Shown here: positions 2,949-52,500 of the stretch, in pieces
Numbering within the stretch: the first letter of the stretch is position 1
Layout: every line of letters starts with the position of its first letter
DNA from: Paraspadella gotoi
Taxonomy: Eukaryota > Animalia > Chaetognatha
Length of the DNA: 64,000 nt
Assembly: GCA_051294375.1 (NCBI GenBank)
Contig: CM119269.1
Location: 15,139,918-15,203,917, forward strand
Reading direction: 5' to 3'
Made by a program: the position numbers and the translations under genes
The notes under the pieces: generated by a model
Database searches by the model: none
Seen by the model: the letters and a program-made list of their open reading frames with translations, nothing else
Told to the model about the DNA's origin: nothing

Positions 2949-3858
2949 TATTTAGTTAAAATAAAATTATTACTTCACTGGCGCACGATATTTTCTGCGT
3001 TTCTTTAGACTTTACAAAATCAAAGAAATCTGTTTCTCAGGATCAAACGTTCTTCCACGTTAAGACAGATGTCACCTGGTAAATCTTTCGACGACAAAAG
3101 ATTGTTTACTTCGCTGAACAGTCATGATTGACGTGGAAAAGCTAATAAAAAACTGATATCCTTCATTTGATAAATTTAATAAATGATTGTTCATTATGTT
3201 AATATAATAGGCACTATTTTACATTCGCCGACTGGGGTGAGGGGATTAAGGGTTGCCTCACAAGGTAAAATAATAATAGTAAAATAATAAGTGGTCGTCA
3301 GGACTTTATAAAAGGTAAAAACTAAGAGTTCTGTAATATAAATATCGTTAGAGCATCCCTGTGGGATAATGAAATTTTTTTAAAAATTAAGATTTTATGT
3401 ATAGTTAATAACATAGAATCATTTAAAATTGATTGTATTACTATAAATTATGAAAAAATAATTTTTCAAATTCAGAATTTTTAAAAACGGATTCTGGAAG
3501 AGCATAAAAAATAAATAAAAAATATTATAAGATTTTAAAATTTTTGTTTTATTTGTTAAAATTAATAAAAAATTATAGTATGATGATTTTAAAGGTTTTC
3601 CCTTATTTAACTCACTTATCATCGAAATATTGAAAAACGCATTATAATTTGTAAATAACTTTTCATAGGTTATTTGAATCCGTTCTTAAAAAATAAATTT
3701 AAAAAAAAAAATTTCATTGCTAATGCTTCAATGCGTATTAAGGCGTAGTAAAATTTCTAAATTTAACTTTAATTGAAATTCTAAAAGTGAGGAACTGTAG
3801 TCGGGCATTGCCTAGGTTCACCCCGCCGAGAAACATGACGCTTTCAGTTGTGACCCGG

Positions 3859-3913
3859 TGGCTCATTGAGGAAAGCCATCAGCTCATTAACACTAGGTAC
3901 CGGGTTCAATCCC
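3859..3913 (+). promoter_or_regulatory. tRNA-like Pol III internal promoter (A and B boxes) in LTR A; repeated 406 nt downstream in the 3' LTR
   Basis: A box TGGCTCATTGAGG and B box GGTTCAATCCC at tRNA-like spacing. Confidence 0.7.
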
Positions 3914-3930
3914 AACACGGTACCTACTCT

Positions 3931-4010
3931 GCGGGAAGCGTGAGGACGGCCGTAAGCCGCCTTGGGGGCATGGCAAACCCTCAAGCCTGGTTCCAAGCCC
4001 AGGGACCCGT
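3931..4010 (+). ncRNA. Twister ribozyme, type-P5 permutation (5' LTR of A)
   Basis: P5 GCGGG/CCCGU; GA-GGA; P1 CGGCCG; UAA (predicted cut 3953/3954); GCC; P3 UUGGGGG/CCCUCAA; P4 CCUGG/CCAGG with loop U-UCC-AAGC; T1 pseudoknot GGA:UCC. Confidence 0.82.
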
Positions 4011-48700: not shown

Positions 48701-48916
48701 TACGGTCATTTAGAATTATATGAGGATCAATTTTAAAACGGCGAGCTTTCAGATTCTCAGCTTAGATATAGATATACTTACGATGAAGGCGTAGGTTCCC
48801 TTGAACATGAGCTCGTTGACTCTGCCGAAGCCTTGGATGAACTTCTCGACGTCTCGCTCGCGGCATCCGCGAGGGAGCCCGCCGATGTAGATGCGGTTTT
48901 CGTTGGAAAACGGCAT
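45724..48916 (-). CDS. SR splicing factor, SRSF4/5/6 (B52/SRp55) family
   Basis: RRM1 [36 protein letters not shown]2 [34 protein letters not shown]-repeat exons; acidic and RG-rich last exon. Confidence 0.92.
48606..48672 (+). mobile_element. 5' fragment of a type-D LTR in SR gene intron 1
   Basis: TGTGGCG..TATTCACACCGCCTCACATCCA..AGCCAATTCCATTAGCTCA aligns with 51811-51870. Confidence 0.7.
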
Positions 48917-49549
48917 CGCGGCGGTCAGCGAAAGTTCCGTTGAATTAAGACAAGAGACGAAAACGAAAAAGGGGAAGACTGGAATGGAATCGAAACGGGA
49001 TCCTGGAATTATTAATAGCTGGAGTAAAAGTGGATTGAAAAAGTAACGAATCTGGTAGAGAGATGAATGCAAAAAAACGACGAGAACCGCCAAATAATAA
49101 AAGAGGAATTCGACATTCGACAAAGCGAGGGAGTTGCAAGCGAGGACGACGACGACGACAGCGACGAAGAGGCTTCGGCGGAGAGTCGAGGCAAAAAAAC
49201 TTAGTGCGTCTTTTGTCCGCTTTTTCTCTTCGTAGGCCAAATGAAGAAAAGCAATCTGGTGACTATGCGTCCGGCATCGAATACACTTCTCTATAAATCG
49301 ATAATAACTAATTTAAAACAAATATCCAAACATTCTCTAGAAAGGATACGAAATTAAGACAACAAAGCGCTTTCAACGTAATATAACAACGAATAATATG
49401 TCTAAATTATCTACGGTGTAAAAAGCTCATTAGTTACTGTAATTTAAAACTAATGAATATTTGGAATTTCGGACAAAGAAAGGCAGAGCCATCAAACCAT
49501 GATGCGGATGTATTGGGGTGCAAATAAAGCTCGACCAAGCGAGGACGAC

Positions 49550-52500
49550 TCATTTGGAGAATTCGATATCCGCGATTCCCGGATGTCGATCGCGTTTCCG
49601 ATCCGTGATCGTCTTTTCGCCGTCGGGCCAATCCTCGGCGAAGGCGATGTCCTTGTCCAGACCGAAAGCGGAACCCAGCGGCGTCGAGTCTTCCTTTCCC
49701 GCCGAGACTGCCATCACTTGGGCGGGGAAGCGAAGCGCGAAAGCGGCAGTGTCTGCCGCATCGGTGGCGTCGTCGCTGACCGAAGCCGATCGCGCTAATG
49801 GAAACCGATCGCCCTTAGGGAGGCGCGACTCTTGCGAGGAGGGGCGTTGAGATGATCGACAACCGCCGCCGCCGTAGGCCTATGATGGACGTTGAAAAAA
49901 AAAAAAGTGAATTCGTCTTCAACCCTCAACCCTTTTCAACCAACCTTGAGGAAGTTGAGCTCGAGAAATTTCGAATCGAGATGGTGAACACTGGCGCTCG
50001 CGGCGCTGGTCAAACTGGTCAGGTCCGACATATGAAAGAGGCTGGATCGGCTTGACGACGGCGTCCACTGTCCTACTCCAGCGCCACTGCTTTTACGAGT
50101 CTGGTTGCGCCGGGAAGCGGAGAAGCGGGCATCCATTCCGCGAGCCACGCCCACCCGTTTGGCGTCGCGAGCGGAGTTCAGGTTGCGCATCTTGGAAGAA
50201 ATTGACGCGTTGTCGGAGCGATTGAGTTCCGGCGAGGGAGGGTCTGCCGTCCGGGTTTGCAACGACTCATGAAGGCGACCGATCAAAAAGGCTTTGCCCG
50301 ACGGCGCCGACGATTGAGAAAGTCGATCGTCGAAACTGTGAGCGTCACGCGTCGCGCTCCGCTTTACTTGCGTCTCTAAATCCTGGCGCCAAGAGATTAG
50401 AGGTCAACGTCAGCGCCATTTGGAGTTAAGATTCTCGTCTACCTTGCGGTGAATTCGGGCGGCGAGAGACGCCAACGAGTCGGAATCGCAGACATCTGCT
50501 TTGGGGCGAAGAGCTAGGTGGCGCGGGAGACGCTTGGGCTCCACCAGTCGCGTCGCACGATCCGGAGCACCCTTCGTGCGGGACAACTTTCCTTTTTCCA
50601 TTTCCTGTCGCGGAATATGAAATATGAAAATCAGATATAATAAGTTGACAAGTGGTCAAAACCAAAGTGGGGAGGAAAAACCATTTTTGAAGATCTGACA
50701 AAAACCGAGTATACCTTTTAGCCTTAATTTATGGGCAACTACTCGTTTATGAGTAATTAAATTTTCTTTTGTGTCATTCGTTCTGAGACACGGAGTAAGA
50801 TTAAGAACTCACCTTTTTTGTCACCAACACGGCGGGGATCTGATTAGGAAGGCTGTGCGTTCGAACCGATGACTCTCCCCTCGAGTTGGAATCACCGCCG
50901 TTGACGTCCTGGTCCTCGACATTCGCCTCCTCCACTTTTCTCTTCTCCGTTTCTTCTCCTTTGGCTTTACCGATCGAGGGCTTCCGGCTGGAGTCGTCGC
51001 AGGCGGCCGCTTCTTCCATGATCGTCTCCAACTGGCAGATCCAGGCGGTCTGCTCCGGCGGCACCGCCACCCCCGCTGCCGACCCTTCGAAGGGCCGCAG
51101 ATCTTCATCGGCGACGGCGAGCGTCAACGGGAGCGATCGCGACTCCAGCGGATCGAACCAAGCGTCGTCGCCTTCTCCGCCTCCAAAGACGTCGGGGTGC
51201 TCGGCGTGAAGGTCGTCCACGATTCTGTAGCTGATGTTGCGATTGCGATCAATGATCCAATTGATTTCAATGTTGTCGTCGTCTTCGCCAAAGGGATTAA
51301 CCAAAGACTCGGCAACTTTGAGCCAACCCATGTAGAAAATAAATTGAAAAACGACGAAGACTGGTTGCACGAACATTTCGACGCTGGCCTGGAGGCGACG
51401 GTCGATCAGCGTCGAATTCGTCAAATAAATCACGGATTCGTTTCCGGAGGTGATGTGGGCGTGGTATAAGAGCGGGGTGGAGTTATCGACGCCAGACTCC
51501 AGGGCGCAACCGTGACTCTCAGCTGGAAACTCCACGTGTCCAAACAAATGGGCTAGGAAGAAGGAGTGAATTGCCACGGAAACGACCTGCGGGTTTTGAA
51601 ACAATGTAACCAGGTCCTTTATTGCAAACATTGGCCTTCGGCCCTTCCAGTATTTTCACCTGAAGATAAACCATTGGAATGTTGATCCAGTCGAAATAAC
51701 CGACGAAGCCGAGCTTTCCGCGAAAAGCGAACAAAACTTCAAGGATAGCGTGAAGAGCGTAAATGTTCTCGATGCGATTTTCCTGGAGATAAACGATTAA
51801 AATAAAGAGGTGTGGCGGTATATTCACACCGCCTCACGTCCACCATCCGTCAGCCAAATCCATTGGCTCAGAGGGGGAACACACCATCCCAGGCGTAGTG
51901 TTCCATCCACAGTCCTAATGACTTCCCTCTGCGTTGGCAAAGCGAGACCGTCCTAGGGTAACCGCGCCAGTGACTGGAGGCGTCACTGAGGGTCGGAAGC
52001 CCCCAAAGCCAACAGTGAGATGCCCCATCCCAATGGGCATCACAGGCAACCCGGCTGTTGCCATAGAGGTCAATTAAGGGCATAAAGAGCGATTAGCGAG
52101 AACCTGAAAAGCCCTCTGGCAAATTGCAGCCGCCCATATGATAGGCACCACGTAAGGCGGTTTGTCCACCAAAGAACCTTGAAGGATATTAGACTCGCCA
52201 TCCGTGAGAAGGCCGGCCTCTATCAGATGTTGCATCGATGGAAATCGCTTTTTAGCCTGAGGGCTGATTGATGCCAACTTCAGTACGTAGGACAAGTTTA
52301 CATATCTAAGAAAACAGGTTTTGTCAGGTTTTTCGACATTTACAAAACTATTAAATATATAAAACCTAAGAATTCAAAATAGGTAAAATTTTACTTTCTC
52401 CGACCGGGGATTTGGTGTCTTTTGAAAAACTACTTAACCCTCACCATCCATAACCCTAAATTACCCTTAACTCTAAACACCTCTAACCCCGGTCGGTGAA

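Follow-up and report, generated by a model that had tools for sequence, protein, structure and literature searches.

Candidate LTR Retrozymes with a Twister-Like Motif in the Genome of a Chaetognath

Two described groups of small non-coding retroelements bounded by long terminal repeats (LTRs) come closest to the subject of this paper. One is Helenus, or TRIMp3, for which a tRNA-derived promoter in the LTR of an animal terminal-repeat retrotransposon in miniature (TRIM) with a 4-bp target-site duplication (TSD) has already been described (Kojima, 2024, PMC10886601; here and below, what is said of published retroelements refers to the parts of the sources that were available). The other is the LTR retrozymes, small elements with hammerhead ribozymes that were described in plants, and for which formation of circular RNA has been shown (PMC4918200). 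Retrozymes seem to lack promoters, according to a review (de la Pena, 2020, PMC7761336), an LTR promoter has been reported in Nicotiana, and a 2026 preprint presents LTR retrozymes as primarily of plants and of the type III hammerhead class, with twister never mentioned in its available text. Here we describe four elements, designated A to D, from a stretch of 64,000 nucleotides of the chaetognath Paraspadella gotoi (GenBank assembly GCA_051294375.1, contig CM119269.1, positions 15,139,918 to 15,203,917, forward strand; hereafter the window, to which all coordinates refer), whose LTRs contain a twister-like motif. The reading toward which we lean is that these represent four families of non-coding mini LTR elements, in which tRNA-type boxes are followed by a circularly permuted twister-like motif that likely cuts its own RNA as an LTR pair, with the unit-length RNA being circularized and recopied by a Gypsy-type helper.

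That A to D are mobile elements of the Helenus type is close to certain. Like Helenus, which is non-coding and under 1.3 kb, with A and B boxes in the LTR, a primer-binding site (PBS) of the Gypsy type, a polypurine tract (PPT), a 4-bp TSD, and solo LTRs among its copies, A and B possess the short non-coding two-LTR form with a PBS and a PPT, and the boxes in the LTRs and a 4-bp TSD, of the animal type, are found in all four. Element A (3796-4487, 692 nt; as all features below, on the forward strand unless stated) consists of a 5' LTR (3796-4079), an internal region (4080-4201) and a 3' LTR (4202-4487). Its LTRs, of 284 and 286 nt, differ by 3 substitutions and 2 indels and end in TG..CA, and the TSD GAAC is found at 3792-3795 and 4488-4491. 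The element is inserted in a high-copy AT-rich repeat, of which an empty site with a single GAAC is present in the window near 43983, and in sequencing runs X1, X5, and X9 (run data throughout being assembled contigs) the absence of A likewise shows up as a 696-nt skip, where 4 letters are shared. Element B (19792-20445, 654 nt) has a 5' LTR at 19792-20024, an internal region at 20025-20211 and a 3' LTR at 20212-20445; these LTRs, of 233 and 234 nt, are 2 substitutions and 1 indel apart, and the TSD is GAAG. Two other readings of the 5' end of B, a deletion of 2 nt and a TSD of 6 bp, were rejected because a 2-nt spacer follows the PPT in both A and B. Elements C (30033-30289, TSD CCTC) and D (51811-52065, TSD GAGG) are solo LTRs with TG..TA ends, a TA terminus being also known for some Helenus LTRs. 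They are 75% alike across their last 100 nt. The empty site of C is the neighboring tandem unit, and D lies antisense between two exons of a bestrophin gene.

The first-pass annotation, made from the letters of the window alone, had thus recognized real LTR-like elements with correct coordinates and 4-bp TSDs, and the empty sites of A and C agree with this. The ends it gave, TG..CA or TG..TA, are those of A, C, and D, but not of B, which has TA..CA. It also listed a copy of B at 17081. This copy is present (17081-17508, cut off by an N gap), but it is not an independent insertion: it lies within a 2.7-kb duplication spanning the gap (14793-17508 and 17542-20218, with 30 substitutions and 37 indels over 2734 columns) that includes the flank of B, and for this reason we count it as B's own insertion, the second appearance likely being an unmerged haplotype or an overlap. 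As to coding potential, none is apparent in A or B: their longest ATG-initiated open reading frames (ORFs) are of 77 and 75 aa, and the ORFs scanned have no Pfam match.

The promoter boxes, of a type used by RNA polymerase III (Pol III), were judged against the general A and B box consensus, which is consistent with Kojima (2024). They are good in A (A box 3859-3871, B box 3903-3913, with 0 mismatches) and in C (30089-30100 and 30132-30142). The proposal of a tRNA-like A/B box pair in each LTR must be softened for the other two elements: in B, the A box (19833-19844) is degenerate while the B box (19877-19887) has one mismatch, and in D, an A box at 51864-51876 is followed by a degenerate B box near 51900. 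The presence of a PBS and a PPT in A and B, along with their non-coding nature, stands as proposed. The PBS of A (4081-4091) is tRNA-Trp-like, that of B (20026-20038) matches in 12 of 13 nt the tRNA-Trp PBS shown by Kojima (2024, Fig. S2), the first 10 nt are common to both, and each starts 1 nt past the 5' LTR. The PPT, short in A (4194-4199) and longer in B (20200-20209), is in both cases 2 nt ahead of the 3' LTR. Neither A nor B contains a run of four T, the T4 terminator. The window also contains an initiator-type tRNA-Met gene (25487-25558), which is not the primer of A or B.

Downstream of the boxes, each LTR carries the parts of a twister-like core, in the same order in four of four elements: P5, P2', GA, T1', a short segment, UAA, P2, GCC, P3, P4, U-T1-(A)AGC, P4', P5'. 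In the 5' LTR of A the core spans 3931-4010 (GA at 3942, T1' at 3944-3946, a palindrome at 3947-3952, predicted cut at 3953/3954, L4 at 3991-3998), and in the 3' LTR it spans 4337-4416 (predicted cut 4359/4360), making a cut-to-cut unit of 406 nt. The respective cores of B are at 19899-19974 (palindrome 19917-19922, predicted cut 19923/19924) and 20319-20394 (predicted cut 20343/20344), with a unit of 420 nt. The core of C is at 30157-30236 (palindrome 30175-30182, predicted cut 30183/30184), and that of D at 51933-52013 (palindrome 51951-51958, predicted cut 51959/51960). In A and B, then, the putative self-cleaving motif, as a sequence pattern, is present in both LTRs around a non-coding center.

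The catalytic nucleotides of a twister are kept in all four elements, and the helices differ in sequence. The catalytic GA and UAA, the GC and U-T1-(A)AGC occur in permuted order in all four cores, and the fixed GA, UAA, GCC, and (A)AGC of the first-pass annotation are found in each, with a C at the first A of AAGC in C. The T1 triplets, also as it had stated, differ but pair (GGA:UCC in A, CGG:CCG in B and C, CCG:CGG in D), so that both pseudoknots, T1 and T2, are all Watson-Crick in the four elements, with three different T1 sequences. P3 (6-9 bp), P5 (5-7 bp), and P4 (5, 5, 4, and 3 bp in A, B, C, and D) are all different in sequence. Covariation had been claimed for P2, P4, and P5 alike; P4 and P5 are paired in different sequences, but P2 amounts in A and B to 2 bp plus a bulge or mismatch, and while all four pairs form in C, three of four form in D, which has a single mismatch in each of P2 and P4. 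BLAST detects no significant similarity over the core between families, except between C and D. A large assay of natural type-P1 twisters (PMC11662667) found imperfections in P1, P2, and P4 and an A-to-C change at the A.A pair to be tolerated, while the pseudoknots and catalytic residues were sensitive and broken pseudoknots were not tolerated. The departures of the four cores fall in the tolerated class, the change in C being an A-to-C at the A.A pair. We consider it very probable that a twister-derived fold is under selection here, and the core is predicted, with good though lesser probability, to cleave RNA.

How unusual such cores are was estimated with a descriptor written after the elements were seen. 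Across the 64 kb it matches only A (twice), B (three times), and C, missing D because a 4-bp P4 was required; the chance level is a mean of 0.05 matches in 60 block shuffles of the window and none in 3000 shuffles for each LTR. An outside standard was provided by phage twisters: 43 loci were fetched, yielding 39 distinct cores, and 20 loci were scanned with Rfam; of the matches listed, 18 are to Twister-P5, each exceeding the gathering score, while twister-P1 accounts for 2. The part order of the A to D cores agrees with that of the phage P5 twisters, and one phage core (L043) has the same GCC-P3-G junction. A 3-nt P2 strand is found in 29 of the 39 phage cores, making the short P2 ordinary, and P2 mismatches are found in 4 of the 39. 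With a model built from 29 phage cores only, the five A and B cores are the top 5 of 6 window matches, weakly (E 0.016-0.33). A model of C and D (R2), built with a wrong P5 register, recovers all three cores of B, with E values from 5e-6 to 1e-5; MAFFT misaligned the four cores. Weak model matches are also seen at 49734, 5368, and 55622. The test suggested by the first-pass annotation, a search with the Rfam twister-P5 model, gave only sub-threshold matches: Twister-P5 (RF02684) is the top match in the A LTR, over the full model length, with 17.3 bits versus a gathering score of 37.6, and D scores 15.2 bits to twister-P1, also below gathering. A whole-window Rfam scan gave 8 matches, none of them twister, and Rfam scans of A to D gave no hammerhead match. 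Patterns derived from the A/B cores and from the D core each had 0 matches in viral contigs; one match of the former in metagenome contigs (L044) was in a bacterial coding region and was discarded as chance. Two phage contigs, as a separate observation, carry clusters of P5 twisters 350-2100 nt apart, with CACT repeats after each (L010-L012, L029, L038, L039).

Comparison with the type-P5 twister (RF02684) therefore needs to be qualified. The order P2'-GA-T1'-P1-UAA-P2-GC-P3-P4-U-T1-AAGC, the catalytic nucleotides, both pseudoknots, a P2 of 3-4 nt, and P4 are shared, P2 and P4 imperfectly. In place of the P1 hairpin there is a palindrome, T1 is not GGG:CCC, P3 is always present, and the scores are below gathering. 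The type-P5 fold originally proposed is upheld in its order and pseudoknots, which are like those of the Rfam-verified phage twisters, and in the conservation of the D family described below, but not in P1.

In all four elements the P1 position is a palindrome, 6 nt long in A and B, 8 nt long in C and D. The segment is self-complementary over its whole length, including inner pairs impossible in a hairpin, and no hairpin fold is found. The central dinucleotides vary (GC, CG, CG, TA). Inner palindromes occur in 15 of 279, 15 of 229, 10 of 250, and 7 of 248 equal-length windows of the same LTRs (3-7%), and in this post hoc test the chance product is 4e-6, or about 1e-4 with C and D counted once. 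Phage P1 segments, by comparison, are all of at least 12 nt, with hairpins of at least 4 bp in 37 of 39. Since the P1 segment is too short for a normal hairpin and palindromic, the 5' and 3' LTR copies likely pair with each other, into a predicted double twister. In such a pairing, the first core would contribute its 3' half and the second its 5' half to a type-P1 twister, from whose P5 the internal region would extend as a loop, and the remaining halves would build a second active site. For both A and B, swapping halves between the two LTRs gives a fold about 8 kcal/mol more favorable than a pair of local folds. Dependence of cleavage on the dimer appears somewhat favored. One variant A-like contig from run X1 (joint 4327-4415) is longer and different in sequence past T1', where a small hairpin could form; it may represent a subfamily with a monomeric P1.

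The families are abundant. In run X1, 7260 contigs align to the A stretch, which includes repetitive flanks, and 8397 to D; contigs that run out of D into unrelated AT-rich sequence number 153 at the 5' end and 246 at the 3' end, and the majority letters adjoining D there are ATAT. The families are thus mobile, present in many copies, and selective in their target. Related A-like contigs, 14 of them and mostly 90-95% alike, occur in a biofilm metagenome. Among the 8397 D contigs, the 14 rows of differences at a frequency of at least 5% correspond to 11 places that lie upstream of the core and to 2 within the loop of P3, with none in the helices, catalytic positions, palindrome, or last 52 nt. 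The P2 and P4 mismatches of D are therefore the usual state of the family.

Other published systems share single features with A to D. One example is the T-variants of Perere-3 in Schistosoma (Liu, 2021, PMC8501958), which likewise are twisters carried by a retroelement of an animal, have a weak P1, and cut 5' of AA; however, Perere-3 is a non-LTR autonomous element with a type-P1 form at its 5' end and one cut, and has no LTR, PBS, or Pol III boxes. Another example is the dimeric hammerheads of Penelope-like elements and amphibian retrozymes, in which a short palindromic stem makes two copies cut as a dimer, and a third is the Sm-alpha SINEs (short interspersed elements) of Schistosoma, in which a Pol III promoter is joined to a ribozyme (PMC6765202, PMC7229834). 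All three of the latter differ in ribozyme class, hammerhead, and are non-LTR tandem elements without PBS or PPT (PMC6765202, PMC7229834). The plant LTR retrozymes agree in having a self-cleaving motif in both LTRs, a PBS, a PPT, a 4-bp TSD, no ORF, and a proposed Gypsy dependence, and differ in their type III hammerhead, tRNA-Met PBS, plant hosts, and units of 600-1000 nt (PMC4918200, PMC7761336). As the motif of A to D is twister-like and not a type III hammerhead, these elements, which by analogy would work like retrozymes, fall outside the published definition by ribozyme class.

Helenus itself may be richer in ribozymes than its description suggests. In the available parts of Kojima (2024, PMC10886601), no ribozyme is mentioned in Helenus, the sole occurrence of the word being in a reference title, and six twister motifs searched in its supplement gave 5 matches, none in a twister context. 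Most Helenus consensuses, unlike A to D, have the tRNA part near the 3' end of the LTR, followed by a T-run. In two wasp consensuses of its Data S1, however, Helenus-2_SyJa-LTR and Helenus-2_SyUm-LTR, the promoter is early, and by eye the B box is followed by core motifs resembling the type III hammerhead, three stems and loops complementary to each other among them. Both have a tRNA-Trp PBS, the motif occupies the same LTR position as the twister of A to D, and the paper, in its available parts, is silent on it. Judged by sequence, these would be hammerhead LTR retrozymes in an animal, and the comparison suggests that, in several animal lineages rather than one, the same LTR position may house an RNA that cleaves itself. 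In the literature consulted (open full text in its available parts, including PMC7229834 and PMC10085705), we found neither an LTR element with a twister nor a natural twister acting as a dimer, and no mention of a ribozyme in Helenus. Of the combination that the first-pass annotation took to be undescribed, the promoter-in-LTR design is already known, and the ribozyme within a Helenus-type LTR looks new. Its broader proposal, an animal LTR retrozyme with a twister, is supported by the fold, the LTR anatomy, and the analogy with retrozymes, with the reservations that the motif is not a canonical P5 twister and that the promoter design had been described.

The mechanism we propose starts from what is observed, namely LTRs, a PBS, a PPT, a 4-bp TSD, no coding sequence, and a high copy number. 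Pol III would start inside the 5' LTR and, with no T4 terminator in A or B, would read through; in Helenus, too, Pol III transcription is putative (PMC10886601). The two palindromes would then pair, forming two active sites from halves of both LTRs in the manner of double hammerheads, and cuts at U/AA would free an RNA of 406 nt (A) or 420 nt (B). On the model of the plant retrozymes, a host ligase would circularize the released RNA, and a tRNA-Trp-type primer together with Gypsy reverse transcriptase (RT) and integrase would regenerate both LTRs. The circle holds one palindrome and should therefore be cut slowly. Without a terminal repeat, the 406- or 420-nt RNA is unusable in ordinary strand transfer, which makes the circle the natural intermediate. 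Elements C and D would be recombination-derived solo LTRs of such families. The whole dimer-and-circle cycle we place between an open question and a mild preference. Its most specific form is offered tentatively, as a shade short of probable: that these are true animal LTR retrozymes, Pol III-driven and Gypsy-mobilized, whose LTRs have a slot for interchangeable ribozymes, occupied by a twister in A to D and by a hammerhead in the Helenus-2 of wasps. The twister would then act as a natural domain-swapped double ribozyme, put together by the LTR pair of a single transcript, which would release unit-length RNA and be quiet in the circle.

A number of observations weigh against this reading. No Rfam twister model reaches its gathering score in any of the four LTR types, and B and C have no Rfam twister match at all at E 10. 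The model of 29 phage cores finds neither C nor D in the window and aligns A and B mainly via P4/L4, while the C and D model misses A and scores phage twisters weakly (E 0.09-4). The descriptor and the palindrome statistic are both post hoc, and C and D are related. The last 52 nt of the D family are also free of common variants, so that low variation is not limited to the core. Free-energy folding yields neither the twister fold nor the palindrome pairing (pair probability at most 0.001), and the swapped fold, calculated from secondary structure without tertiary contacts, exceeds the unconstrained minimum by 11-15 kcal/mol. A wobble change in the 3' LTR of B weakens its palindrome (self-duplex -3.8 versus -8.3 kcal/mol). 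P1 is reported to be dispensable in type-P1 twisters (PMC11662667), and thus monomers may cut without a partner. The predicted circles are 64% and 54% paired, compared to 70% cited for retrozymes. Finally, neither a full-length C or D element nor a helper was seen, and no RT or integrase family was found in the 145 scanned of its 261 stop-to-stop ORFs of at least 70 aa.

The main rival to the cycle proposed above, which we regard as unlikely, is that the twister mainly forms 3' ends: an RNA that Pol III begins in the 5' LTR and that ends where the 3' LTR is cut would have a terminal repeat of about 100 nt and could use ordinary strand transfer with no circle. A promoter upstream of the cut does create such an R region, and in A and B, which have no T4 terminator where most Helenus LTRs have a T-run soon after the B box, the cut could replace the terminator. 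However, the 5' LTR carries the same motif and is transcribed first, the swapped fold makes both active sites, and cutting at both would remove the terminal repeat; plant retrozymes of the same layout, moreover, do make circles. Slightly less likely still is cleavage of each LTR as a monomer via a P1 of 1-2 bp, with the palindrome serving another use, such as RNA dimerization for packaging in helper particles. Here the type-P1 data, in which P1 imperfections do not lower cleavage (PMC11662667), are relevant, as are the outer pairs of each palindrome, which could close a 4-nt loop, and the apparent tolerance of the wobble in the 3' LTR palindrome of B. The published tolerance, though, concerns an open-ended P1 and not a 6-nt closing loop, the palindrome falls exactly at P1 in four families, and in the Penelope hammerheads, according to a review, it is palindromic short stems that drive dimer cleavage.

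The elements could also be ordinary Helenus apart from the motif, which would be an inactive relic that was taken over from another retroelement and has kept only a structural part. The sub-threshold Rfam scores, the weak P2 of A and B, the mismatches in C and D, and the lack of folding support would fit such a relic, but compensatory change has preserved both pseudoknots along with the catalytic nucleotides in families whose cores, C and D excepted, show no significant BLAST similarity to each other; this, and the absence of common variants in the D core outside a loop, make it improbable. That the fold is just a second, degenerate tRNA is scarcely credible. ARAGORN does call a tRNA-Tyr in A (3917-4014), in both LTRs, and the L4 of A resembles a B box with one mismatch; it makes no such call in B, C, or D, however, Rfam has no tRNA match at that place, and a tRNA does not explain the covariation of T1, the T1/T2 pattern by itself contradicting it.

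Should the retrozyme reading of A to D be true, the retrozyme cycle would be extended to animals, beyond the hammerhead elements of plants, and twister ribozymes, for which few jobs are known, would gain a role in LTR retrotransposition. Retrozymes, thought to lack an internal promoter, would be provided with one, and the palindrome-linked double twister would be a second ribozyme class using the dimer switch of the hammerheads. The observation on wasp Helenus-2, as far as the available supplement goes, suggests that unannotated ribozymes are hidden in published TRIM libraries.

Additional features of the LTRs and of the window are as follows. A hairpin of 6-7 bp is found at the LTR start in B, C, and D (19792-19820, 30033-30065, and 51811-51840) and is weaker in A; it shows compensatory change between C and D, and in a circle it would come after the PPT. 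In C and D, a 7-bp hairpin also follows the core (30238-30289 and 52014-52065), with different sequences and pairing kept, and this 3' region has no common variant within the D family. A D-like LTR 5' fragment (48606-48665, 82% over 60 nt) ends in the A-box region and has no ribozyme core, and a 30-nt match to the D 5' end on the reverse strand (59365-59393, E 0.045) has no further recognizable LTR. The tandem repeat receiving C (30003-30390) is composed of short units of about 54 nt, C being inserted in the first, with the second empty. The AT-rich high-copy repeat that hosts A has internal inverted similarity, resembling a miniature inverted-repeat transposable element (3490-5044 and 43968-44731), with related copies near B (16312-16534 and 19026-19264). 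Near-identical duplications, besides the one containing B, pair 1-703 with 8128-8839 and 709-906 with 3217-3414; several adjoin N gaps, and together they suggest unmerged haplotypes or assembly overlaps. Finally, an intronless gene for an L-type amino acid transporter is located at 11956-13320 on the reverse strand; its closest relatives (68-76%) come from metagenome or run assemblies, which points to a thinly sampled host lineage, and its best named relatives, 52-59% identical, are spread over molluscs, annelids, and arthropods.

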